Virus record (IMG/VR): IMGVR_UViG_3300011738_000001
From: a virus
Length of the DNA stretch: 14,893 bases
Strand: one strand, 5' to 3'
Shown here one piece after another: positions 3,315-14,893 of this stretch (position 1 is its first letter; the number at the start of each line of letters is the position of its first letter). Made by a program: the position numbers and the translations under genes. The notes beneath the pieces are model-generated. The model worked only from the letters and a program-made list of their open reading frames with translations. It was not told the DNA's origin and did no database searches.

Positions 3315-3623
3315 TTAGTCCGGTTGCTTGAACGGCGAAGGAACGCGCTCAGTTTGATTTGGGGGTAAAAAGGAAAGGGGGGGTCGTGGGTGTCCTTTGC
3401 TCCTAAAAAAAGCCCCAGGGGCTGTTGTACGGTCTTTCTTGCCACTATTACAGGATATGCAAGCGGCCACTAGATTGTTCTCGTCGTGCATAGCACCGCC
3501 CTTAGATATGGGCTGTATGTGATCCACAGTTGTAGCTGTACCACCACAATAGTAGCAGCAGTAATCATCACGCTTTAATACTATGAGTCTTATCTTGCGC
3601 CAACGCTTATCGTATGTTGCCAT
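3315..3623 (-). CDS. HNH endonuclease (packaging-associated)
   Basis: Contains RDDYCCYYCGG...VDHIQPISKGG...NLVAACISCNSGK, i.e. the CxxC / DH / N / CxxC HNH zinc-finger pattern. The ORF track starts at 3656. I prefer the ATG at 3623-3621 (MATYDKRWRKIR), which forms a TAATG overlap with the upstream gene stop. The C-terminal ~40 aa are Pro-rich and of low complexity. Confidence 0.85.
   Translation of the reverse strand: MATYDKRWRKIRLIVLKRDDYCCYYCGGTATTVDHIQPISKGGAMHDENNLVAACISCNSGKKDRTTAPGAFFRSKGHPRPPLSFLPPNQTERVPSPFKQPD
3405..3423 (-). terminator. Terminator-like hairpin plus T-run embedded in the 3' part of the HNH ORF
   Basis: The minus strand reads AGCCC-CTG-GGGCT followed by TTTTTT. On the plus strand this is A7 at 3405-3411 and the palindrome agccccaggggct at 3411-3423. 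It lies inside coding sequence (APGAFFRSK), so function is uncertain. Confidence 0.25.
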
Positions 3624-3967
3624 TAGTACCAATTGTGGCGCTGATGATGAACCCAAGCATTACACCAGTTCTGGTATCTATGCTGTATGTATTCACTAAC
3701 CAACCTAAGCTGCCTTCGCATTGTCCAATTATCGGATTGAGTATGACCCAATTGGAATACACCCCAGTATTGCTTGTCCCTAGATAAAGCGAATTGGTTA
3801 AATCTTGATTCTTTGTATGCGATTGATAAAGCGCAATTGGCATTAGTACGATCATAGCTTCTACTTACATACCGTTCTATGCGTTTATCCACAGGTAAGG
3901 GTTGTTCAATACTAGGCTTTTGTGAGTAAAGCATTATGGTTATCAACATATCCACAAGCATAAGCAA
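3623..3967 (-). CDS. Lysozyme-like / SLT-type lytic transglycosylase domain protein
   Basis: LSIAYKESRFNQFALSRDKQYWGVFQLGHTQ matches the ES-x-F-N-x-x-A-x-S...G-x-x-Q signature of SLT and c-type lysozyme folds (catalytic Glu in KES). The start is uncertain: TTG at 3967, or ATG at 3961 preceded by AGGG. The stop overlaps the HNH ATG (TAATG). Confidence 0.6.
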   Translation of the reverse strand: MLMLVDMLITIMLYSQKPSIEQPLPVDKRIERYVSRSYDRTNANCALSIAYKESRFNQFALSRDKQYWGVFQLGHTQSDNWTMRRQLRLVSEYIQHRYQNWCNAWVHHQRHNWY

Positions 3968-4125
3968 ACCCTAATTAAATCGCTTAGGCAAGAGTTCGCC
4001 CTTCGGGGCGCTCTGCCTGGCCTCGGAAGCCGCTGACGCTGCCTGCTGAGTGTAATGCTTTGTCAAGTTTAAGCAAGTGATACACGGTTTATTCGCGTGT
4101 CGCCACGCACCGCACACACATCTAC
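3968..4125 (-). promoter_or_regulatory. GC-rich structured non-coding region between the early module and the packaging module (candidate regulatory / cos-pac region)
   Basis: No ORF on either strand. It is visibly more GC-rich than the flanks. On the minus strand it holds two hairpins, duplicated CAGGCAG motifs, and a weak promoter-like pair: TTGCTT (4076-4071), a 16-nt spacer, then TACACT (4054-4049). Confidence 0.4.
3987..4017 (-). terminator. Long bulged hairpin with UUCG/CGAA tetraloop
   Basis: The plus strand folds as ggc-a-agag-tt-cgccc-ttcg-gggcg-ctct-gcc, giving 12 paired positions with two small bulges. On the coding strand it lies about 110 nt downstream of the nuclease-like gene stop. 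There is no clean U-tract, so the terminator role is tentative. Confidence 0.35.
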
Positions 4126-4545
4126 TTATCTTAAAATCGGAAGTTCCCATATCTTTTCAGCCTCACTTGTATGTAAGTAGCCAATCATTTTAGGTATCTT
4201 GGTTTGGTTGCCGAAGGTAGTTGCTGGCATAAGCTCAGACACCCACTCAGGGCTATGGTTAATTAGATTAAATGCAAATACTCCGTTTGGTGTTGAGCAT
4301 ACATAGTATGGCACATATCTGCCTAGAAAGGCAGTAGTAACCAACCTTTGATATTTGGTGTATTCGATCAGCAGCTTGTCGTAATGGGTGCGCCTGCATT
4401 TAAGTTCAACATACATATTAAAGCGCTTAGACCAGCAGTCATAGACTGAGTATGGATTAGGGCTGGCAGTTAAATCGGGAACTATGTTTCTTAGGTAGTT
4501 AAATAGGTCGTATTCAGTCTGTATCATCATCACTCCAATCGTCAT
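4126..4545 (-). CDS. PD-(D/E)xK nuclease-fold protein (possible resolvase/endonuclease)
   Basis: 139 aa. VYDCWSKRFNMYVELKCR gives D-x11-E-L-K, the core PD-(D/E)xK arrangement, and a nearby KYQRL is reminiscent of the QxxxY motif. The start may instead be the ATG at 4527, which is preceded by GGAG at 5 nt. Confidence 0.45.
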   Translation of the reverse strand: MTIGVMMIQTEYDLFNYLRNIVPDLTASPNPYSVYDCWSKRFNMYVELKCRRTHYDKLLIEYTKYQRLVTTAFLGRYVPYYVCSTPNGVFAFNLINHSPEWVSELMPATTFGNQTKIPKMIGYLHTSEAEKIWELPILR

Positions 4546-4577
4546 AATATGGACGACTAGGTATTATCTCTATTGGT

Positions 4578-4718
4578 TCATTGGGCGTAATAGTCACAAG
4601 CCACCTCTTTCAACGCCTGTTTCATAACCAGTAATGCGTTTAGCTGCTGCTGTTGCATTTCAATCATTGTAGCTATTATTGACTCCATTGAATCTAGCTT
4701 TTCACTTATTGTCATCAT
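4578..4718 (-). CDS. Small 46-aa helical protein (not in the ORF track)
   Basis: My own translation is MMTISEKLDSMESIIATMIEMQQQQLNALLVMKQALKEVACDYYAQ. The ATG at 4718 follows a GAGAGAG purine run and overlaps the end of the zinc-finger gene. The ORF fills an otherwise empty 156-nt gap in a genome with almost no non-coding DNA. Confidence 0.35.
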   Translation of the reverse strand: MMTISEKLDSMESIIATMIEMQQQQLNALLVMKQALKEVACDYYAQ

Positions 4719-4911
4719 CACTCTCTCTCATTTCTTGTCTAAATAGACCATTACCTAAGCAACGATCACAGGTTTCTTTGGTTTCTTTGATCTCGCCATT
4801 GTCATTGTCAAACTTGAGCCAATAGCCCATACCTACACAGGCTGGACACTCATTGGCGTCAGCAAACTCATTAGGTAACGTGTACATAAGCGGCATACCC
4901 TCTAGGCTCAT
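4702..4911 (-). CDS. Small DnaJ-type zinc-finger protein (two CxxCxGxG motifs)
   Basis: 69 aa with CPACVGMG and CDRCLGNG, both exact matches to the CxxCxGxG repeat of the DnaJ cysteine-rich domain. Has an acidic C-terminus. Its start overlaps the upstream stop (ATGA). Confidence 0.65.
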   Translation of the reverse strand: MSLEGMPLMYTLPNEFADANECPACVGMGYWLKFDNDNGEIKETKETCDRCLGNGLFRQEMRESDDDNK

Positions 4912-5579
4912 TTAAGGCTCTCAATCAGCTGTGAAGCATTAGCCCTAGATAACTGGTTAAGGCTTTCAACTTTGTAGCCTAGCTCTTTAGTTGCATATTC
5001 GTATGCGTCTAGTGCCTTTTCTGAACATAACTTTCGAATAAACCCTAATTGCTTAGGTGTTGCTGGCATATTGGTTGAGTTAATCACCGCTTTAGGCTCA
5101 GGTGGATTATCTGAAGGTGTCCAGGTATTCCAATCGCCAAACGGATCATCTAGTGGCTCGGGTGGTAATGGCAGGTCACTACCCCAGTCAAGCGGATTAG
5201 CGTCTTTGACTGCCTGGATCTCAGGCTTTACCATTTGCACTACCTTTGCCATTTCAGTACGGCTAGGGCGTGTTTTCTTAGGATCGCTGCCCTGGTAACC
5301 CATATTGGCTAATGCTCTACCTACTGCTGATGTTTCGCAATTCTCTAACGCAGCTGTGCGATTAACTGGACTGCTCCCGACTATTTCCTCAGCCCAACCA
5401 GTTGCCTTTAGCAGATCACCTATCCATATCTCCGCTTTGCAGACATACTGAATAGGCATACCCTCTTTGTTGCGTTCTATGTGGATCAGGGAAGTAACCA
5501 CACGAAGGTTTAGGTATTCTTTATGAGCTGCGTCTAAGCGTTCGGCTACTGTTTCGTAGTTATCAAGATTAAAGCCCAT
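4908..5579 (-). CDS. Rad52-family single-strand annealing protein (Sak-like recombinase) with C-terminal helical module
   Basis: NRTAALENCETSAVGRALANMGY aligns in spacing with the conserved Rad52 helix KEAVTDGLKRALRSFGN (T-x4-RAL-x3-G). The N-terminal NYETVAERLD and the beta-rich stretch fit the family. The C-terminal TPKQLGFIRKL...LSRANASQLIESL is a separate small helical domain. Confidence 0.6.
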   Translation of the reverse strand: MGFNLDNYETVAERLDAAHKEYLNLRVVTSLIHIERNKEGMPIQYVCKAEIWIGDLLKATGWAEEIVGSSPVNRTAALENCETSAVGRALANMGYQGSDPKKTRPSRTEMAKVVQMVKPEIQAVKDANPLDWGSDLPLPPEPLDDPFGDWNTWTPSDNPPEPKAVINSTNMPATPKQLGFIRKLCSEKALDAYEYATKELGYKVESLNQLSRANASQLIESLK

Positions 5580-5757
5580 AGCGTGCCCAATCGTAAATAA
5601 TCTTGCTGTGTGCTTGCTTCTCTCGGCTTATGTCGCCTAGTAATTGCTGATACTTTTCAGCTTCCATTTGACCCTTTAGCTTGCCTAATGCAAACCAAGT
5701 ACCAGTCCAGATAAATAAGATCACTAGCCATAAAGCCAGCTGTAATACTTCTAGCAT
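5569..5757 (-). CDS. Small membrane protein, first gene of the early module
   Basis: 62 aa. One clear hydrophobic helix (LQLALWLVILFIWTGTWFALG) is followed by a charged helical tail. GGAG lies 5 nt upstream of the ATG. Confidence 0.55.
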   Translation of the reverse strand: MLEVLQLALWLVILFIWTGTWFALGKLKGQMEAEKYQQLLGDISREKQAHSKIIYDWARYGL

Positions 5758-5883
5758 ATCTACTCCGTCTCTTAGTAGCGGCGATTTACCGCCTAGACAG
5801 ATCTAAGCACTTATGGGAGACACTTGCAAGGTGGTTAGTCAAACACTATGATTTGGCGTGTCGGAACCGTCTCAATTCTGACG
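5758..5883 (-). promoter_or_regulatory. Intergenic region upstream of the early module (candidate early promoter)
   Basis: One of only two non-coding gaps over 100 nt. The minus strand contains TTGACT (5842-5837) without a good -10. It also has TTGCAA (5829-5824), a 17-nt spacer, then TTAGAT (5806-5801). Both are weak matches. Confidence 0.3.
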
Positions 5884-5914
5884 CCCCCTAGTGACTCTCT
5901 GCTAGGGGGTTTTT
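5884..5914. terminator. GC-rich hairpin at the end of the late operon; T-tract lies on the plus strand
   Basis: ccccctag (5884-5891) pairs perfectly with ctaggggg (5902-5909) around a 10-nt loop, followed by ttttt (5910-5914) on the plus strand. On the minus (coding) strand it sits immediately after the phosphoesterase stop, preceded by A5 and followed by CGTCAG. Confidence 0.55.
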
Positions 5915-6656
5915 AGTTTCCGTAAACTTTGCCCTCAACCACAAACGATCCGTTTTTATGTACAGGGATCATTGACGGCGTTACCAATTTGTTATCAACG
6001 TAAAGTATGCCGAAGCCTTGCTGCCAGTTGCCTGATCCGGCCTTTAGGTAGTGAGCGCTACTAAAGTTCATTAGGTTGCCAATTTCAAAGCCTGTAAGGA
6101 TACGCCCTAAAACGCCCCCAGAAGCCTCTGTAACGTGCGTTAGCCCTAGCCTATGGGTGTGACCACACACCACACTCTTTCCGTGCCTCTTAGCCAATCC
6201 TAGGGCTGTTAAACCGGGGGTAGAGTTTGTGCTGCCTTCGTCACCGTGAAGCGCTACCCAACCAGGTGCTAACTCAAACGGCTTGCGGTGATATTTGATA
6301 CCAAGCTCCTTAAAGCGTAAGAAGTTTGGCAGCTCTAACTCAGGCACTCCAAGTAAACCAGGCGCTTTAAGTGCAATAGTGGTAAATAAACGATCTGTGT
6401 GGTTTGACCTAATTACGTCTGTGACTTTCAGCGCTTCAAGTATGCGTACGGTTTCGTCACGATCTTGAGCTAGTGTGCCTGTGTATGCCCCAGCTGTGCC
6501 AGCAGTCCAGCGACTAATAGTAGGCATATCTATCTCATCACCAATAGTGACTACTTGATCGGGCTTGTAACGCTTAACGAAGTCGATCAGATTAGCAACT
6601 GCCCTCTTATCGTGGTAGGGAATTTGCAGATCGGATACGATCAGTATGCGCTTCAT
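5913..6656 (-). CDS. Calcineurin-like metallophosphoesterase
   Basis: All the ordered motifs are present: VSDLQIPYHD (DxH), IGDEID (GD), RSNHTDR (GNHD/E-like), LHGDE and CGHTHR (GHxH). Its start overlaps the upstream stop (ATGA). Confidence 0.85.
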   Translation of the reverse strand: MKRILIVSDLQIPYHDKRAVANLIDFVKRYKPDQVVTIGDEIDMPTISRWTAGTAGAYTGTLAQDRDETVRILEALKVTDVIRSNHTDRLFTTIALKAPGLLGVPELELPNFLRFKELGIKYHRKPFELAPGWVALHGDEGSTNSTPGLTALGLAKRHGKSVVCGHTHRLGLTHVTEASGGVLGRILTGFEIGNLMNFSSAHYLKAGSGNWQQGFGILYVDNKLVTPSMIPVHKNGSFVVEGKVYGN

Positions 6657-6847: not shown

Positions 6848-7008
6848 TATGGCTTCTTTTGGGGTGCTATCAGGCCAGTTATTGCAGCTGCAAGTGATCC
6901 AAGTAGTGCCTGTGCTGTTAATTCATAATTGGCAGCAGTCCAAGCAGCAAGAAACGCTCCTAGTGCTAGGCCGATTTGCTTACCCTCTTTACTCGTCATC
7001 TTCGTCAT
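6847..7008 (-). CDS. 53-aa two-transmembrane-segment protein, holin candidate (not in the ORF track)
   Basis: My own translation is MTKMTSKEGKQIGLALGAFLAAWTAANYELTAQALLGSLAAAITGLIAPQKKP. It has two hydrophobic helices separated by a short polar turn and a basic C-terminus. In-frame ATGs occur at 7008 and 6999. The stop forms a TAATG overlap with the next gene at 6847. Confidence 0.55.
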   Translation of the reverse strand: MTKMTSKEGKQIGLALGAFLAAWTAANYELTAQALLGSLAAAITGLIAPQKKP

Positions 7009-7243
7009 TGTCTTCACTTTCGTCTGATAGGTTTTCTATTGCGTAATTTACTAAGCCTTGGGTGCGCCATATTGGTTGCTCATCACTACTTAACATATCT
7101 ACAAAGTAATCGCCTGTTTCAGTAAAGTACTCAACGACTAAAACGTAGTTAGTAGCAACCGCGGGTACATCACACGCCAGGGCTGCTATCTGTGCGAGTA
7201 GCCTTTGTATTTGCAGGCTTGGGCTTTCCTGGGCTTTTGGCAT
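6989..7243 (-). CDS. Highly acidic 84-aa protein of unknown function
   Basis: The ATG at 7243 is preceded by GAAGG. There are roughly 18 Asp/Glu against 3 Lys/Arg, and the protein ends DESEDNDEDDE. The first 74 nt overlap the 3' end of the M23 gene in another frame. There is no alternative ATG, GTG or TTG start downstream of the M23 stop until Met50. Confidence 0.5.
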   Translation of the reverse strand: MPKAQESPSLQIQRLLAQIAALACDVPAVATNYVLVVEYFTETGDYFVDMLSSDEQPIWRTQGLVNYAIENLSDESEDNDEDDE

Positions 7244-7691
7244 TAGCTACCTTCTTTGCAGTTGCTTTCTTGGCTACTTCTTTATCCTCGTTTGTCAGCA
7301 GTATTAAATCAGTTGGGTCTAAGTGATCGTCATATTTGTACGGCGATTCGCGCAACTCAAAGTGCAAGTGGTTGCCCGTGCTATTGCCAGTCGTCCCTAC
7401 CTTGCCCAACATAGCGCCCTCAGCTAGATCCTGGCCTTGGATTACTGTCGTTTTAGATAAGTGAGCATAGATAGCCCTAAGTCCGTTCCTAAACTCCACA
7501 ATAACTGCTGTGCCGTAAGACTCGCCCCAGCTCGGGTAATTGCTTACTTCAACTACTTTGCAAGGTCTAACCGATACGACAGGCGTACCAGCAGGCGCTT
7601 TAATATCTATGCCTGTGTGGTAGCCAGCTTTGTAACGATCGTTCTTAACCCCAAAGTGGTTGCTTATTGTGTAACCCTGTACTGGAAACAT
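7170..7691 (-). CDS. M23-family metallopeptidase (endolysin) with Lys/Ala/Pro-rich C-terminal tail
   Basis: YHTGIDIKAPAGTPV (HxxxD), YAHLS and GTTGNSTGNHLHFE (HxH) are the canonical LytM/M23 motifs. Small membrane proteins follow it. Confidence 0.9.
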   Translation of the reverse strand: MFPVQGYTISNHFGVKNDRYKAGYHTGIDIKAPAGTPVVSVRPCKVVEVSNYPSWGESYGTAVIVEFRNGLRAIYAHLSKTTVIQGQDLAEGAMLGKVGTTGNSTGNHLHFELRESPYKYDDHLDPTDLILLTNEDKEVAKKATAKKVANAKSPGKPKPANTKATRTDSSPGV

Positions 7692-7906: not shown

Positions 7907-8671
7907 TTATGCTCCGTAAACGTAAAGTGTGCCAGCGTCAAAATTGCCTACCGTCGAAATTAGTGATATTGAACTGATAGTGCTGCCACCTAAATAAGCA
8001 CCATAACCGCCACCAGTTTGAAAAGCACCACCTTCGGAACCGCCAAAAACTTGTACCATTTTCGGCCCTGTTGAATTAGCGCCGTCTACTGACGCCCCAG
8101 CAGCAACTAAAAAAGCAGCGTTTGAACCTTGTCTAGCAATTTGTATTTCGCTTCCTGTTGCGGAGTTTAATTGTTGTGAATTGCTTGGCGGATACAAAAA
8201 CGCTAGTGAATAAAGGTAATTTGTTCCACTATCACCATTTAATCTTAATTGAATAAAAGAGGCTGCATCAGCGGAGCCACCAACTGCAATAATTCTTAAT
8301 TGGTTTTTTCCACTAATACCGCTGACTGTAATTGTAGTTGCACCTGTAAGCGCTGTGCCACCTGCGTTGAGTAATGTGAAAGCTTGTGCAGGCGCTCCAC
8401 CCGCAGCCCACTTTAAGCCAGTTGCAGTAGAACTATCAGCAGTTAAAACTGTGTCATTTGCACCAACTGCTAAACGAGCTACGGTGTCTGCTGCTGTTGC
8501 AGCGATAATGTCACCTTTAGCATCTACTATTGTTTTTGCTATTGCTGCTCCTGCGTTGCTAAATACGGTTGCGTCAACCGCGTCAGCAAAAATCTCAAAG
8601 TCAGCTGGTAGATCTGTTACCAAGTCAGTTGGCGCAGGTGTTACCCAACTGTAATTAGGCGTAATTGCCAT
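7907..8671 (-). CDS. Minor tail protein / tail fibre (probable receptor-binding protein)
   Basis: 254 aa. The N-terminus MAITPNYSWVTPAPTDLVTDLPADFEIFADAVDA resembles the conserved anchor of many phage tail-fibre proteins. The rest is Gly/Ala/Ser/Thr-rich. It is the last gene of the tail block and has a strong SD (AAGGAAGG). Confidence 0.55.
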   Translation of the reverse strand: MAITPNYSWVTPAPTDLVTDLPADFEIFADAVDATVFSNAGAAIAKTIVDAKGDIIAATAADTVARLAVGANDTVLTADSSTATGLKWAAGGAPAQAFTLLNAGGTALTGATTITVSGISGKNQLRIIAVGGSADAASFIQLRLNGDSGTNYLYSLAFLYPPSNSQQLNSATGSEIQIARQGSNAAFLVAAGASVDGANSTGPKMVQVFGGSEGGAFQTGGGYGAYLGGSTISSISLISTVGNFDAGTLYVYGA

Positions 8672-8683
8672 TTGTTACCTTCC

Positions 8684-10018
8684 TTATGCCACGACTTGAG
8701 CATTTGCCCAGTCTAGTGTACCTGAAACCGTGTTCCAAGCCTCTAAAGGCGAAACCTGATCCCAATTCTGTGCTAGTACGCTTAGTGCGTATTCTGTCAG
8801 ATAAAGCGTTAAAAATACTTCATATTGGTTAATTGTCCAAGATATGCCTTCAACAAACCCAGCAAAGTTATTGACATAGATAGTGTCAGGTGGGTTTATT
8901 TCCAAAGGTACGCCATTATGAATCTTAATTAAAAAATCCCGCAAACCATTAGCCATAGAGTCTAATTGCAAAGGTATTGTAATTGCACTTAAAGATCTGC
9001 GAGGATACCCTCTGGTTGTCAAATAAAGATCTAAAACTGCTTCCGCAGCTGCTTGTTCCTCTAAGAGGGTACTGACCGATACTGCTAACTGACCATATTC
9101 ACTTATTGAACCAGCATTTGTATCGCTTACGGTTTGATTATTTTTGTAAATAACGGTCACGTCATTAGCCAGGTCAGACATACGTTCAATACTGGATAAG
9201 TTACTGGCTAGTATTACATTAGTTGGAATAGTAGTAAATCCATAGGTAGCCACATAATCTGATCTTGAGGCTGCGTCTGTGTAATTTAATCTACCGTCAC
9301 GACCTTCATAAAGCACACCCCTAGCGCTGTTGGCTACTTGTCCAGCAAGATTAAAGGCATTAGTTTCGCCTGAACTGTAAGCAACTATCTCATATTGGCC
9401 AGGTGTATCTATGCCACCTTCAACTGGGTCATAATTAAACCAAAATAAAGAGGGGTCAATATTATTCCAAGCAACAGGATTAGTGTCTTGATAAGTGTCT
9501 AAACCTGAACTGCCAATGTAAGGGTTGTAAGTATTCCAAGTTAAAGTAGGGTCAATATCTTGCCAGGCTACACCTGCTGGACTATCTTCCCAGCGCTCAG
9601 CTGTAGCTTCTTGAATTATGTTTAGAATACGGTCGCCGTCGAACTCTTTGGCAAAGCCTGTACCACCAACCAAACGCCTATTTAATCTAGCGAGTGTTCC
9701 AACGCCTGTAATAGTAGTTTTTGTAGCAAAGCCAACTGCTCCGTAAGAGTCAATAGTCCTAGCAATATCTGATACAAAGCCTGCAAAGATAACTATTGGG
9801 GTGCCAGTTGTATCGTCTATCTCTACCTGTACTGAGTGATCTATTTCAACTACTGGGATATTGTTGCCAAAGGTTATTAGATCTATTGTGCAATACCCTG
9901 CGCGTGGCTGATCGTCGACGCTAGTACGTCCAGTAGTAATTCTTACACCGTTCAGCGTGTTGCCTGTGTAAGAAACTCCGTCAATTAAGACTGCTGGGTT
10001 AGGTGTGTAAGCTGGCAT
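8684..10018 (-). CDS. Minor tail protein (distal tail / baseplate-hub position)
   Basis: 444 aa, immediately after the tape measure with a TAATG overlap. The N-terminal VLIDGVSYTG...VRITTGRTSVDDQP is typical of siphovirus distal tail proteins. It contains repeated Trp motifs. Confidence 0.6.
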   Translation of the reverse strand: MPAYTPNPAVLIDGVSYTGNTLNGVRITTGRTSVDDQPRAGYCTIDLITFGNNIPVVEIDHSVQVEIDDTTGTPIVIFAGFVSDIARTIDSYGAVGFATKTTITGVGTLARLNRRLVGGTGFAKEFDGDRILNIIQEATAERWEDSPAGVAWQDIDPTLTWNTYNPYIGSSGLDTYQDTNPVAWNNIDPSLFWFNYDPVEGGIDTPGQYEIVAYSSGETNAFNLAGQVANSARGVLYEGRDGRLNYTDAASRSDYVATYGFTTIPTNVILASNLSSIERMSDLANDVTVIYKNNQTVSDTNAGSISEYGQLAVSVSTLLEEQAAAEAVLDLYLTTRGYPRRSLSAITIPLQLDSMANGLRDFLIKIHNGVPLEINPPDTIYVNNFAGFVEGISWTINQYEVFLTLYLTEYALSVLAQNWDQVSPLEAWNTVSGTLDWANAQVVA

Positions 10019-11700
10019 TACTGGGCAATAAACTCTGATACTAGTGGCAAGTTACCGTTTCGAGCGCCTTCATTTCTGATTACTTCTGCAATTGCTCTAG
10101 CTGCGCCTGCTGGGTCAATTAGGTTGCCAGTCACATTAACATTAACTGTTGGTGTGGTTTTTGGGTTCCTATTTGTTACGGGTATGCCAGTTCTAATAGA
10201 TTCAGCTACGTTAAATCCTTTGCCAAAGCCAAAAAAAGGATCGCCAAACTTTTCATTAAGACCTTCAATTACGCCGCCAAATTGGCTAATTAAGCCTAGG
10301 TCATCACTTAACGTTTGTATTTGTGATTTTGATAAACCTCTAATAGTAGGTACGGTTGCAGCTCCGCCAGTACCAGCACCGCCAGCACCAGGAGTAAAAG
10401 TTGGCAAAAAACTGCCACCACCACCACCACCGCCGGTAGGAGCTTTGCTTAAATTAACTAATTGGCGGTATTGGTTAGCCAAACCGTCATTAACATTATT
10501 TAACGCTCTGTATTGATCCTCTAAGCCTTTAGTAACTACTTTATTATCTTCAGCAAACACTCTAAACGCAGCTCTTAGATCTCCTTGCACAATTAAAACT
10601 AAAGCCTGCATACTCTTTATGATTAGGTTTATTAACTCTAGTATGGCTCTAAAAAATACAATAGGAGCATTTAAGGTAGCCAAACTTATTTCCTTAAATA
10701 CATTTTTCAAGAGTACGGCAACGTCGTTTTGTTCTCTAGTTGCGTCAGCTGCAAATCCTAGTCTTATTGTTAATTCCTTAAAACTTTCCTTTAAGGCGTC
10801 AACATTTTTAATAGAATAGTTTTTAATTTCTACGCTAGTATCTTTAAGACTTTGTATGAACTCTTTAACTCTAGGTACTAATTGAGTTCGTATGATTGGT
10901 ACTAAACTCTCGTTAAAAAATCTAAATAGATCAACTGCTACTGGTAATAATTGCTCGCCAATTTCTATCTTTGTGTTTTCTAACTCAGCAGTTAGTATTC
11001 TTTGCTGGTTTGCAAGTCCGTCTGATGTTCTAGCAAAGTCACCTTGAGCAGCACTTGTTTGTTCGTAAATAACTTTTTGGGCTGCTAATACTTTTTGCTG
11101 TGGGGTTAAAGCATTTTTAGTAGTGCTAATTAAACCAAGTTCTAATGCTGCGTTACGCAAAGTAGCGTCATCTAGTAATACACCAAACTGACGAAGTGGC
11201 TCAGCTTCTCCACGCAAAGCAGATCCAATAGCGTTAATAGCTTGCTCGGGGGTCGTGTTATTAAAAGAAGCAAGATCAGACGCTAAGCCTACAAAGTCAG
11301 TAGAGAAAGTTACTAATTCCTCACCTGCTAAGCCAGCAGCTCTACCAAAGGTTGCAAAGGTAGCTGACGCGTCTAAGGCTTGTTGCTTACTTTGACCAAA
11401 TTGTGCAGCTGCGGTGTCTGCAAACTTTTGTACTGCAACACTACCTTCGCCAAAGAGTACGTTTGTTTTGGCTAAGGTTTCGCTAAAGTCACTAGCAGCT
11501 CTAGTAGCGTCTATGCCTAACTTAACTGCAAAGGCGGCAGCAGCAATACCAGCAGCAGCGGCAGCTGCGCCAACTTTCTTAAAGGTATCACCAATTCGAT
11601 TGCCGGAGTTACCAGTTTCGTTTTCGGCTTTTTTTAAGCCTTTAACTAAATCATCTGTATCAGCAAGGATAGATAGTTTAAGAGTACGATTGCCTGCCAT
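10018..11700 (-). CDS. Tail tape measure protein
   Basis: This is the largest ORF (560 aa) and sits downstream of the chaperone. It has an N-terminal Ala-rich hydrophobic segment and the conserved FG..S...AL.A.A.F..FGRAAGL...F..DFVGLASDLASFNN core. It also has long helical stretches and a Gly-rich segment. Confidence 0.9.
   Translation of the reverse strand: MAGNRTLKLSILADTDDLVKGLKKAENETGNSGNRIGDTFKKVGAAAAAAGIAAAAFAVKLGIDATRAASDFSETLAKTNVLFGEGSVAVQKFADTAAAQFGQSKQQALDASATFATFGRAAGLAGEELVTFSTDFVGLASDLASFNNTTPEQAINAIGSALRGEAEPLRQFGVLLDDATLRNAALELGLISTTKNALTPQQKVLAAQKVIYEQTSAAQGDFARTSDGLANQQRILTAELENTKIEIGEQLLPVAVDLFRFFNESLVPIIRTQLVPRVKEFIQSLKDTSVEIKNYSIKNVDALKESFKELTIRLGFAADATREQNDVAVLLKNVFKEISLATLNAPIVFFRAILELINLIIKSMQALVLIVQGDLRAAFRVFAEDNKVVTKGLEDQYRALNNVNDGLANQYRQLVNLSKAPTGGGGGGGSFLPTFTPGAGGAGTGGAATVPTIRGLSKSQIQTLSDDLGLISQFGGVIEGLNEKFGDPFFGFGKGFNVAESIRTGIPVTNRNPKTTPTVNVNVTGNLIDPAGAARAIAEVIRNEGARNGNLPLVSEFIAQ
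10415..10435 (-). repeat. Trinucleotide repeat (CCA)5(CCG)2 encoding a Gly7 run in the tape measure
   Basis: Read directly from the sequence: ccaccaccaccaccaccgccg. On the coding strand this is GGC GGT GGT GGT GGT GGT GGC. Confidence 0.9.
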
Positions 11701-12158
11701 TAGAACCTATCCAGTATTTTTTCAAAGCCTTTTTCCCATTTTTCAATAAGTTCAGGCTGTTCTTGTCTTAGTGTTGGATAAATAAAATATCCAGCATTAC
11801 CACGACCTTTATTTGGTGATCGTCCAGGAAATTGTTTGTAACGCCTAGATCCAAACTCTAAACCATAGAGAATATCTTGAGTGTTACCGCCACCGCTTAA
11901 TTTTTGACTAGCAAACCCATACTTAAATTCACCGATCTTGCTAGACTTAGCAATACGAACACCGTCAGCAACTTTAATAGATCCTTTAGGATATTTGCTA
12001 TTGCGTCTAGCAGCAGCTTTAATTTGGTCAGCAGCATACTCAGCAAGTTCACCTGATAATTTTTTAGTTTGATCTATTGCTTCATCGTCCATAGCCTTGA
12101 AAGATTTAAGGATTTGGCGTAGGTCGGCTTTGTTGTATTCAACTTTAACGTCAGCCAT
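11700..12158 (-). CDS. HK97 gp10-family protein (tail completion / head-tail joining), in an unusual position
   Basis: 152 aa. MADVKVEYNKADLRQILKSF..., YGLEFGS and YFIYPTLRQEQPELIEKW mirror the family pattern (N-terminal I-x-G-x-x-E-L, Y-G-x-x-x-EFGT, PF-x-x-P). AAGGAG lies 5 nt upstream of the ATG. Confidence 0.55.
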   Translation of the reverse strand: MADVKVEYNKADLRQILKSFKAMDDEAIDQTKKLSGELAEYAADQIKAAARRNSKYPKGSIKVADGVRIAKSSKIGEFKYGFASQKLSGGGNTQDILYGLEFGSRRYKQFPGRSPNKGRGNAGYFIYPTLRQEQPELIEKWEKGFEKILDRF

Positions 12159-12533
12159 TACGCTCCTTTAATATCTCTAATGCGGTTAAAATATCCTCTG
12201 CATTATCCCAATACTGCATAGGTATCTTTGTTGCGATAGCAAGTTCAACTATTAGTCGTCCGAGGCTACCGCTTGGGTGGGGTTTACTGCTGTTTCCTCT
12301 ATTTCAATATCTGCAACTGTGGCGCACCAGTTATCTAAACTTAGCGCTGCCTTGTTTGGATTTTCTCGCTTCATAGCGTGATAAGCCAAGAACATAAGAT
12401 CGCTAATGCCAAGTGAAGGATCTTTGCTGATCTTTTGACCAGTTTCTAGTTCCCACTTGCGCCACTCAGGCGGTGCAGCTACATAAGTAGCTTGATCGCC
12501 TGTGTTTGTAGTTATTTTAATATTTAGTTTCAT
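12151..12533 (-). CDS. Predicted -1 frameshift product of the tail assembly chaperone (G-T-like, about 127 aa)
   Basis: After A_AAC_CCC (12285-12279) the -1 frame stays open for 42 codons (HPSGSLGRLIVELAIATKIPMQYWDNAEDILTALEILKERNG). It ends at the TGA at 12153-12151, which overlaps the next gene's ATG. This extension explains the otherwise empty 93-nt gap. Confidence 0.5.
12252..12533 (-). CDS. Tail assembly chaperone (G-like, frame 0 product)
   Basis: 93 aa and acidic, between the major tail and tape measure genes. A slippery heptamer lies near its 3' end, with an open -1 frame downstream. Confidence 0.65.
   Translation of the reverse strand: MKLNIKITTNTGDQATYVAAPPEWRKWELETGQKISKDPSLGISDLMFLAYHAMKRENPNKAALSLDNWCATVADIEIEETAVNPTQAVASDD
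12279..12285 (-). promoter_or_regulatory. Candidate -1 programmed ribosomal frameshift heptamer A_AAC_CCC
   Basis: The plus strand reads ggggttt at 12279-12285. On the coding strand the frame-0 codons are GTA AAC CCC, which is the X_XXY_YYZ register. Confidence 0.5.
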
Positions 12534-13985: not shown

Positions 13986-14893
13986 TCAGGTTAGGTTGAA
14001 CCAGTTTGCGCCAGCAGCGATCTTGGTTGCTAGTGCGCCATATCCGTAGTATGAAACCTCGATCTGACCATTTAGGGCAACGTTGGTTTGTAGGCGAATA
14101 CGTGGAGATTCGTACCAGGTGTAAGCGTCTGGGTTTACTACGACCATTGAATAGTCAGCAGTACCAACACCGCCTGAACCTGTAAAGTTACGATCTACAT
14201 ACAGATCCAAACCTAATACGTTTCCGCGTAGGCTTGTTGGGCTTACGGCACCAGCAGCGTTTTGTGGCTGTGAGGCTGTGTAGATTGGACGACCTGCGTC
14301 GTTGTATCCCATAATGTTTGCCCATTGGTCAGGTGTAACTACCAAGTTACGAGCAAAGCCAAGAGAAGCTGCATAAACGGCAGCTGAGGCACTTGCTACA
14401 TAAGCAACAATACCCTCTTTGTCATTGTCTTGAGCGCTTGCGTTTAGAGTTCCGTCAATTTGGATCTTGTTTGCTACGAAAGCGTCTGTGGCTTTTGCAT
14501 ATGCAAACTCCATTTGCTTTACCAATTCAGTAAAAAATACTGGGTTGGAGCGATCTAGTAATTCTACTGAAAAAGTCTGTCCGCCTGCATACTTGTTTAC
14601 GTTTACAGTTATGAAAGAGTTTGTCATACCTGTTTCGCCAATTGCATCAGCTTCGTTTACGTCTGCAACAGTTGGTACTGCTGTAATCTTTGGAATCTCA
14701 AAGCTCATACCTGCGTCAGGTAGTGCGCCTGTTGAAATAGCAGAAATCATTGGCCTATCAGCGTTTGATAATGGGTTAATAATCTCTGTTAGCTGACGTG
14801 TTGGGATCAAGCCTGAGTTATTGCTTGTGGTGTCATCAGCAAACGCTACGAATTGGCGAGAATCCTCGTTACCCAACTTTGCGCGTACTGAGT
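13986..14893 (-). CDS. Major capsid protein domain (HK97 fold), C-terminal part of the protease-capsid fusion ORF
   Basis: Motifs such as FEIPKITAVPTV and FITVNVNKYAGGQTFSVELLDRSNP..F.ELVKQM.FAYAKATD fit the Phage_capsid (HK97-like) pattern. The ORF is open to the window edge. The start at 14876 in the track is a TTG that is internal to the longer ORF reading in from 693->1. Confidence 0.85.
   Translation of the reverse strand, partial: SVRAKLGNEDSRQFVAFADDTTSNNSGLIPTRQLTEIINPLSNADRPMISAISTGALPDAGMSFEIPKITAVPTVADVNEADAIGETGMTNSFITVNVNKYAGGQTFSVELLDRSNPVFFTELVKQMEFAYAKATDAFVANKIQIDGTLNASAQDNDKEGIVAYVASASAAVYAASLGFARNLVVTPDQWANIMGYNDAGRPIYTASQPQNAAGAVSPTSLRGNVLGLDLYVDRNFTGSGGVGTADYSMVVVNPDAYTWYESPRIRLQTNVALNGQIEVSYYGYGALATKIAAGANWFNLT
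14817..14893. repeat. Terminal direct overlap, copy 2 (identical to 1-77)
   Basis: Same comparison as copy 1. The capsid ORF reads straight through this segment in frame. Confidence 0.97.

Follow-up and report, generated by a model that had tools for sequence, protein, structure and literature searches.

Positions 4126-5757 of the viral record IMGVR_UViG_3300011738_000001 (14,893 nucleotides; this whole stretch is called the window below) encode five early proteins: a membrane peptide, an annealase-like protein, a small zinc-finger protein, the product of a micro-ORF, and a predicted nuclease. We propose, with confidence that is about evenly balanced, that this region is a recombination module, belonging to a minimal cos-type siphovirus that lacks a replisome and depends on that of its host for copying. 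All genes of this genome lie on the minus strand, and the five early open reading frames (ORFs) are present at the positions listed by the first-pass annotation. In the order of transcription they encode a 62-amino-acid (aa) membrane peptide with a hydrophobic N-terminus (5569-5757; MLEVLQLALWLVILFIWTGTWFALG), a 223-aa putative single-strand annealing protein with an annealase-like predicted fold and gene context (4908-5579), a 69-aa zinc-finger protein carrying the motifs CPACVGMG and CDRCLGNG (4702-4911), a 47-aa micro-ORF product that is predicted to be helical (4578-4721), and a 139-aa PD-(D/E)xK protein with an Hjc-like predicted fold (4126-4545). The end of the latter gene is overlapped by a gene for a 59-aa Cys-rich small protein (CVC...CITC; 3971-4150).

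Each of the five ORFs was compared with its counterparts in three relatives that are 93-95% identical in DNA; relatives are labelled here as loci, and these three are L001 (JGI Ga0114349_1000852, 14,765 bp), L005, and L006. Nearly all substitutions are synonymous in every one of the five ORFs. For instance, the 223-aa gene differs from that of L005, the sole ungapped comparison, by 28 synonymous changes and 1 non-synonymous change, the 139-aa gene shows 11-13 synonymous vs. 0-1 non-synonymous differences, and the 4-7 nucleotide differences in the micro-ORF are all synonymous, leaving a protein that is 100% identical in three relatives. Thus, the five ORFs are real genes under purifying selection and not chance ORFs.

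The window carries an exact 77-bp direct repeat at positions 1-77 and 14817-14893 and is thus a complete genome assembled as a circle, with a true length of 14,816 bp. When the ORFs accepted as genes in this genome were scanned with Pfam and PHROG, no polymerase, primase, helicase, initiator, single-stranded DNA-binding protein (SSB), integrase, or repressor was detected, as the first-pass annotation had stated. Its broader claim, that no recognisable replication genes are present, holds for replisome and initiator genes but needs qualifying, because the metallophosphoesterase encoded across the intergenic gap (247 aa, 5913-6656; phrog_221, E 3e-73) is a full-length homologue of the replication-linked protein gp47 of phage Bxb1. 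An HNH endonuclease (3315-3656), whose gene stops 10 bp short of the large terminase gene, has to be added to the DNA-metabolism genes that it had named.

The 223-aa protein is probably an annealase, an assignment that is carried mainly by gene context. In the AlphaFold2 (AF2) model, built from 43 homologues, an N-domain (~5235-5579) with a predicted local distance difference test score (pLDDT) of ~90 is followed by a disordered linker and a C-terminal three-helix bundle (~4911-5072). The modelled N-domain consists of a helix (residues 11-21), three strands (25-36, 42-53, and 56-66), and a second helix (71-92) that contains the invariant residues G87-R88. The annealase superfamily is defined by two motifs, a three-stranded sheet with a bridging helix and an N-terminal β-hairpin that wedges into DNA (PMC11783212), and the first of these is present in the model as a three-stranded antiparallel β-sheet with a bridging α-helix. 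The top Foldseek matches of the N-domain in PDB are the 80alpha Sak protein (8qe9, E 9e-4), yeast Mgm101 (9yi9, E 3e-3), and human RAD52, with Mgm101 superposing on the model at a root-mean-square deviation (rmsd) of 3.0 over 89 columns. Among the predicted viral structures in BFVD, the matches include ERF ("essential recombination function"), ERF-superfamily, RAD52-named, and "recombination protein" entries with E from 6e-7 to 1e-3. The modelled C-domain resembles the C-terminal domain (CTD) of Red-beta (rmsd 1.7 over 56 columns, E 0.08) and has a weak match to the Pfam family GemA.

By sequence, the 223-aa protein matches only function-unknown families, namely phrog_11717 and, through its homologues, the recent Pfam family PF27148 ("Slr1353_N"). 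Precomputed PF27148 matches exist for nearly all homologues, including those that are 91-99% identical to the window protein, and the match to the L001 product is marked as weak; the NCBIfam model slr1353_fam scores E 0.043, far under its cut-off. A full-text literature search on PF27148 and Slr1353 returned nothing useful. The N-domain is widespread: a search with it collected 3,307 cluster representatives (clusters at ~50% identity) at E<=1e-3 and 698 at E<=1e-10, in which it is nearly always N-terminal in proteins of 100-320 aa (mostly 160-250 aa) with variable C-termini.

The genes that accompany these homologues are in keeping with a single-strand annealing protein. In Pontimonas phage phiPsal1 the order is lambda exonuclease, a helix-turn-helix protein, and the 223-aa homologue, with an archaeal-type resolvase nearby. 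In record MW202512, the homologue was named "mgM101-like protein" by the depositors and is followed by an exonuclease, one ORF, and an SSB. In another case, Pelagibacter phage HTVC028P encodes a putative nuclease, one ORF, and then the homologue, and in Lactobacillus phage Ld17 the homologue opens, after Cro, the early operon that has SSB and resolvase genes. Among 82 related IMG/VR and other loci, a YqaJ exonuclease lies directly upstream in 5, a Cas4-like nuclease occurs in 10, and a VRR-NUC nuclease is encoded within three genes downstream of the homologue in 43. Relatives of the 223-aa gene repeatedly adjoin exonuclease and SSB genes in genomes where no other annealase is annotated nearby.

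A comparison with the known modules of an exonuclease and an annealase (lambda Red Exo/Beta, RecET, 80alpha Sak-SSB, and P22 Erf) shows both likeness and difference. The predicted architecture is shared, with an N-terminal sheet-plus-helix core, a flexible linker, and a small variable C-domain; in Red-beta, the CTD that the 223-aa C-domain matches is the part that binds Exo and the SSB tail. The neighbourhood of the relatives, with YqaJ/lambda-Exo exonucleases, Cas4-like nucleases, and SSB, is also that of such modules. In contrast, the 223-aa protein has no sequence similarity to Red-beta, RecT, ERF, Rad52, or Sak, and the window encodes a metallophosphoesterase in place of a lambda-Exo/RecE-type enzyme. 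Within the window, the phosphoesterase is the only candidate for an end-processing nuclease, and it and the Hjc-like nuclease are the only candidate exonuclease partners.

The metallophosphoesterase gene is the last gene of a long operon, just upstream of the gap. BLASTP aligns residues 2-245 of its product with residues 3-253 of Bxb1 gp47 at 38% identity (E 2e-57), and the motifs GDxxD, NH, HG, and GHTH are aligned between the two proteins. By tblastn, it has full-length matches of 36-44% identity in 1111 phage records, most of them from cluster-A mycobacteriophages; L5 gene 54 (36%) and genes annotated as recombination directionality factors are among the matches. A phmmer search against PDB sequences gave chance matches only. 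The phosphoesterase is the best-conserved non-structural protein of the lineage, with 54-71% identity in related genomes vs. 43-50% for the 223-aa protein. According to the account in PMC11795197, which cites Savinov 2012, L5 gp54 and Bxb1 gp47 are required for mycobacteriophage DNA replication; gp47 is predicted to be structurally similar to Mre11 and to the PolD DP1 exonuclease, and acts as a weak exonuclease once purified (PMC11795197). For a related phosphoesterase, A10ZJ24 gp48, damage to the host DNA and a requirement in phage DNA replication in M. tuberculosis have been reported (PMC12287305). While Bxb1 gp47 and L5 gp54 combine a directionality-factor function with the requirement in replication, the window phage has no serine integrase. 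The directionality-factor role therefore cannot apply here, and only the proposed primary role in replication or as a nuclease can explain why the phosphoesterase has been retained.

The 139-aa protein is predicted to be a PD-(D/E)xK nuclease, as the first-pass annotation had proposed, and is a putative resolvase of Holliday junctions or other branched DNA. Its AF2 model (pLDDT 88, predicted template modelling score 0.81) retrieves archaeal Hjc/Hje resolvases as all of the best 16 Foldseek matches in PDB (probability 1.0, template modelling (TM) scores 0.42-0.63), followed by DpnI and RecU. Among 25 homologues, E47 and K49 are invariant, E11 and D36 are conserved in at least 90%, and an ELKCRRTHY block is strictly conserved; E11, D36, E47, and K49 are thus candidate catalytic residues, with an E...D...ExK spacing that we take to be almost that of Hjc. 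The D-x11-ExK spacing in the first-pass annotation contained a counting slip of one residue, the actual motif being D36-x10-E47-L-K49. One homologue carries the JGI name "Holliday junction resolvase". The 139-aa protein has no match in Pfam (including the Hjc model), PHROG, or NCBIfam, and its profile found nothing relevant among PDB sequences; an hhalign comparison of the nuclease profile with phiPsal1 gp40 was not significant, though the ExK motifs line up. Archaeal Hjc/Hje and phage Hjc-like proteins such as phiPsal1 gp40 share with the 139-aa protein a length of ~125-140 aa and the α-β-β-β-α-β PD-(D/E)xK core, whereas the extra C-terminal strands and the family-specific ELKCRRTHY block set it apart from Hjc.

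The distribution of this nuclease among relatives is narrow. Its gene is present only in the three closest relatives among 84 loci, and in sister genomes its slot is occupied by a gene for an 88-89-aa Cys-rich protein, while most other small relatives have a VRR-NUC nuclease in its role and elsewhere there is no nuclease. In L001, a 142-bp deletion (window 4083-4224; around position 10303/10304 of L001) strips the last 33 residues of the nuclease together with the start of the 59-aa gene, which is conserved in L005 and L006. This deletion joins the shortened Hjc-like gene to another frame and makes L001 a natural variant without an intact resolvase. With sister genomes lacking it and L001 carrying only a truncated copy, the gene is a dispensable accessory, a point that weighs against the proposal of a recombination module. 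The same observations rule out the Hjc-like nuclease as an obligate partner of the annealase. The suggestion of the first-pass annotation that it would be an uncharacterised partner thus did not hold, the protein being of a recognisable resolvase type that sister genomes do without.

The 69-aa protein contains exactly two CxxCxGxG motifs, as direct reading of the sequence confirmed. Its designation as a DnaJ-type zinc finger agrees with the families that it matches, although all of the scores are below curated cut-offs. The Pfam model DnaJ_CXXCXGXG gives E 3e-5 and 24.5 bits (cut-off 32.7), anti-TRAP and DnaJ chains are in the top three matches among PDB sequences (E 0.6-1), and a paralogue in L002 scores 27.1 bits against Anti-TRAP (cut-off 32). 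Two repeats in ~50-80 aa, enough for one zinc centre, are also what the DnaJ zinc-finger domain and anti-TRAP (RtpA) have; unlike DnaJ, the 69-aa protein has no J-domain, and its gene is tied to the annealase-like gene by synteny in this lineage only. In every sister genome examined (L002, L086-L091, and L095), the 223-aa homologue is directly followed by one or two paralogues, of 53-69 aa and 80-83 aa, and therefore the link between the two genes is kept down to 43-50% annealase identity. The resemblance to anti-TRAP suggests a protein-binding role, and the zinc finger would most likely act as a small adaptor or inhibitor. Weak PHROG matches to Q-like antiterminator families (E 2e-4 and 0.02) were also obtained, and this role was left as a minor possibility, since the match covers little beyond the Cys motifs.

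The micro-ORF has no Pfam, PHROG, or NCBIfam match and no relatives beyond the closest genomes. The 62-aa peptide has one N-terminal transmembrane segment; its gene is the first after the gap, overlaps the next gene by 11 nt, and has a counterpart of 62-63 aa at the same position in sister genomes, with 34-39% identity.

The 155-bp intergenic gap (5758-5912) between the phosphoesterase and membrane-peptide genes is the likely place where late transcription stops and early transcription begins, with a putative terminator followed by a putative early promoter. A G+C-rich hairpin (5883-5910, minus strand) lies directly after the phosphoesterase stop, and a promoter-like element matching the consensus, TTGAGA-16 nt-AATCAT (5875-5848, minus strand), lies ~90 nt upstream of the membrane-peptide start.

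The following sequence of events would connect these parts. After injection, the genome would circularise at cos, and the early promoter in the gap would drive expression of the membrane peptide, the annealase-like protein, the zinc finger, and the resolvase. The gp47-type phosphoesterase, as an Mre11/DP1-like enzyme, would generate single-stranded DNA, which the 223-aa protein would coat, possibly docked to the tail of the host SSB via its Red-beta-like C-domain, and anneal to complementary single strands at ends or forks. The host restart machinery could then take over the branched, primed intermediates and extend them into concatemers, from which the Hjc-like nuclease may clear junctions ahead of packaging by the HNH-terminase pair. 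We infer the order of events and their link to the initiation of replication; the identities of the parts rest on the separate evidence given above. On a more far-reaching reading, which we regard as quite unlikely, proteins of the PF27148 type would constitute a sixth, hairpin-less branch of the Rad52 superfamily and, with the gp47-type Mre11-like phosphoesterase, would form a self-sufficient system for recombination-primed starts.

Several results weigh against the proposal, and most of them concern the annealase assignment. Double-stranded RNA-binding domains (dsRBDs) of the same helix-sheet-helix topology (Loquacious, Staufen) match the modelled N-domain about equally well, at a probability of ~1.0 and with target TM scores of 0.47-0.71 that are above those of Mgm101 and RAD52, so that the predicted fold is not specific to annealases; the modelled Red-beta match, for its part, involves a small three-helix bundle at E 0.08. 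The second defining motif of the superfamily, the β-hairpin (β1-β2), is absent from the model, where a single helix (residues 11-21) precedes the sheet and the first 24 residues leave no room for it. At the level of sequence, the Pfam scan of the 223-aa protein found no annealase family (Rad52, ERF, RecT, or DUF1071) at E<=1, and searches of PDB sequences by phmmer and with profiles, using the protein, its helix segment, and the family profiles, were empty or returned unrelated matches at chance level. With hhalign, the family profiles, including a diverse one of 73 sequences, reached a probability of 0.1-0.5% against a Sak (DUF1071) profile, a weak test in that this profile was built from 80alpha Sak homologues of low diversity and remote homology is still compatible with the result. 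The Rad52-like annealase of the first-pass annotation is upheld by the sheet-plus-helix fold and by the annealase slot beside exonucleases in relatives, but not by sequence-level membership or by a hairpin. The window itself, moreover, encodes neither a lambda-Exo/YqaJ-type partner nor an SSB. The dsRBD matches, the missing hairpin, the negative profile comparisons with Sak and PDB annealases, and the weak GemA match of the C-domain would fit a dsRBD-like nucleic-acid binder with another role, for example in binding the origin, organising the replisome, or regulating through RNA binding, whose resemblance to Rad52 is that of a common fold. We consider this very unlikely, given that the relatives repeatedly adjoin exonuclease and SSB genes with no other annealase annotated nearby and that the BFVD matches carry ERF, RAD52, and recombination-protein names. 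The dsRBD matches are, besides, expected for an annealase, because the Rad52 core is itself placed in the dsRBD-like fold class by SCOP and Pfam.

Even with an annealase in place, the module could serve recombination and repair only, and replication could proceed from an unrecognised cis-acting origin with host factors, an explanation to which we assign a lesser but still appreciable probability. Host DnaA, priming by transcription or an R-loop, or a nick by the HNH-terminase pair at cos leading to rolling-circle synthesis could all serve such an origin, and the annealase-like protein and the resolvase would then merely raise the yield through concatemer formation, repair, and the removal of branches before packaging. 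Many phages indeed pair an annealase and a resolvase with a separate initiator, including phiPsal1 (RepO, a replisome organiser) and Ld17 (a replication protein and DnaC), and a few small relatives of the window phage have genes for winged-helix initiator-like proteins (~260 aa; L014 4275-5045 and L024 2793-3566), so that not all members of this size class are without an initiator. The dispensability of the Hjc-like gene points in the same direction. On the other hand, a search of the gap and the rest of the window for an origin gave no iterons, tandem repeats, origin-like elements, or significant structure, a result that counts against a host-served origin and also against our own proposal. 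A replication phenotype has been reported for the gp47 family, and dozens of genomes of 13-17 kb have kept hardly any DNA genes apart from one for the annealase-like protein and one for a small nuclease. It is also conceivable, though on balance unlikely, that the early set is mainly a kit for host takeover and anti-defence, a role that is compatible with the recombination module. The phosphoesterase would degrade host DNA, thereby silencing defence genes and supplying nucleotides, the zinc finger would be an anti-TRAP-like inhibitor, and the membrane peptide would block superinfection. The reported disruption of host genomic DNA by A10ZJ24 gp48, which so permits phage replication (PMC12287305), agrees with this, as do the resemblance of the zinc finger to anti-TRAP, a protein-binding inhibitor, and its weak antiterminator matches. 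But the zinc-finger scores are all under family cut-offs, the phosphoesterase gene closes the late operon, ahead of the putative terminator hairpin, and is not an early gene, and the annealase-like gene and the resolvase are left unexplained. The recombination module of a phage copied by the host replisome is our preferred reading, at the even confidence stated at the outset.

Comparison across the lineage separates its core from its accessories. The order of the phosphoesterase, membrane peptide, annealase-like, and zinc-finger genes is kept across genomes with 43-50% annealase identity, and these four constitute the conserved set of the lineage. Of the triad that the first-pass annotation had suggested searching for in other genomes, the pair of annealase-like and zinc-finger genes is thus kept in the sisters, but the nuclease occurs only in the closest relatives. 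Some sister genomes encode, right after the phosphoesterase, an additional 140-aa P-loop kinase-like protein (AAA_33; L086 8921-9343, L090 and L091 9235-9666) that is absent from the window. L002 also has, at 11487-11993, a gene for a 168-aa adenine methyltransferase-like protein, which is likewise absent here.

The remainder of the genome follows a siphovirus order. Transcription proceeds from a protease-scaffold-capsid fusion gene spanning the window ends through the head-tail adaptors, major tail protein, tape measure, distal tail protein, and fibre to the M23 peptidase, small membrane proteins, the metallophosphoesterase, and the gap, and then from the five early ORFs and the 59-aa Cys-rich ORF to the transglycosylase, HNH nuclease, large terminase, and portal genes. 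The fusion is a single ORF of ~500 aa (~690 down to 1, then 14893 down to 13986) that joins an S78 protease, a scaffold-like linker, and an HK97-type major capsid protein; the window boundary splits it, and so the ORF listing gives merely a 296-aa capsid ORF. The corresponding 506-aa product of L001 contains both Peptidase_S78 and Phage_capsid. No small terminase subunit was recognised in the window; a cos site is presumed at the physical genome ends, given the HNH-terminase pair. Neither tRNAs nor Rfam families were detected in the window.

Several features of this part of the genome are recorded as observations in their own right. The 3' end of the HNH ORF contains a short, terminator-like hairpin (3411-3423, minus strand) that has a run of T. 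An 84-aa ORF (6989-7243), which matches Pfam DUF7213 with a score just under the cut-off, shares 74 nt, in another frame, with the end of the M23 peptidase gene (7170-7691); the overlap may be real, or one of the two starts may be mis-set. The cumulative GC skew falls steadily from position 1 to a minimum near 12 kb and then rises, despite the uniform gene direction, and the turn (~11500-12500) is near a 93-bp gap (12159-12251) that separates the presumed tail chaperone gene from the one after it. In the tail regions (10018-11700 and 7907-10018), comparison with L001, L005, and L006 gives only ~26% identity for the tape measure and 74-84% for the fibre and distal tail genes; tail modules have been sharply exchanged among relatives whose early regions are 93-95% identical.

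By its architecture, the genome fits the small-genome actinophages, a class that is already known, and tiny siphoviruses without most non-structural genes have been described before. Cultured members (Arthrobacter clusters AN/AX/FE, Microbacterium EE, Gordonia CW/DM, and Rhodococcus RRH1) have a fused protease-scaffold-capsid gene and lack most non-structural genes, and are described as carrying DNA-binding proteins and regulators (PMC7302621, PMC5513430). The window phage shares with them the siphovirus gene order, a genome of <20 kb, the protease-scaffold-capsid fusion, the HNH nuclease, and the lack of an integrase, a repressor, and most non-structural genes; it differs in its G+C content of 44% and in its likely host, a freshwater actinobacterium and not a soil genus. 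Its closest terminases, ~32% identical, are those of Arthrobacter phages, and a megablast search of the whole window against 50,697 phage records gave no nucleotide match. Its set of non-structural genes differs as well: tblastn returned no member of the 223-aa family and no gp47-type phosphoesterase from Arthrobacter or Microbacterium phages.

The host is likely a low-G+C freshwater actinobacterium of the Nanopelagicales or Ilumatobacteraceae. The evidence for this host is indirect. Homologues occur in metagenome-assembled genomes (MAGs) of Nanopelagicaceae and Ilumatobacteraceae, the best of them on a contig of 14,860 bp that has phosphoesterase, annealase-like, and zinc-finger genes as in the window. 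Further hints come from the large terminase, nearest to Arthrobacter phages, from the phosphoesterase, nearest to mycobacteriophages, and from WhiB genes in related loci. Five N-domain homologues (L100, L103, L106, L109, and L113) are located on contigs of 64-140 kb from MAGs of Candidatus Nanopelagicaceae and other freshwater Actinomycetota, which suggests prophages or islands in acI-type genomes. Such genomes are usually said to hold few prophages or islands.

The descriptions of the cultured small actinophages consulted here are silent on how the smallest tailed phages, without replication genes, copy their DNA. The genome described here narrows the candidates to four conserved proteins: the gp47-type phosphoesterase, the membrane peptide, the annealase-like protein, and the zinc finger. 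The retention of a gp47 homologue in a phage without an integrase supports the published view that the directionality role of this family is secondary to its role in replication or as a nuclease. The family of the 223-aa protein is large (~3,300 representatives at 50% identity) and almost unannotated, and is a candidate source of compact recombineering proteins for actinobacteria. If a self-sufficient, recombination-primed start system does operate in these phages, it would free a large clade of tailed phages of 13-17 kb from the need for an initiator, a helicase loader, a primase, and a polymerase.

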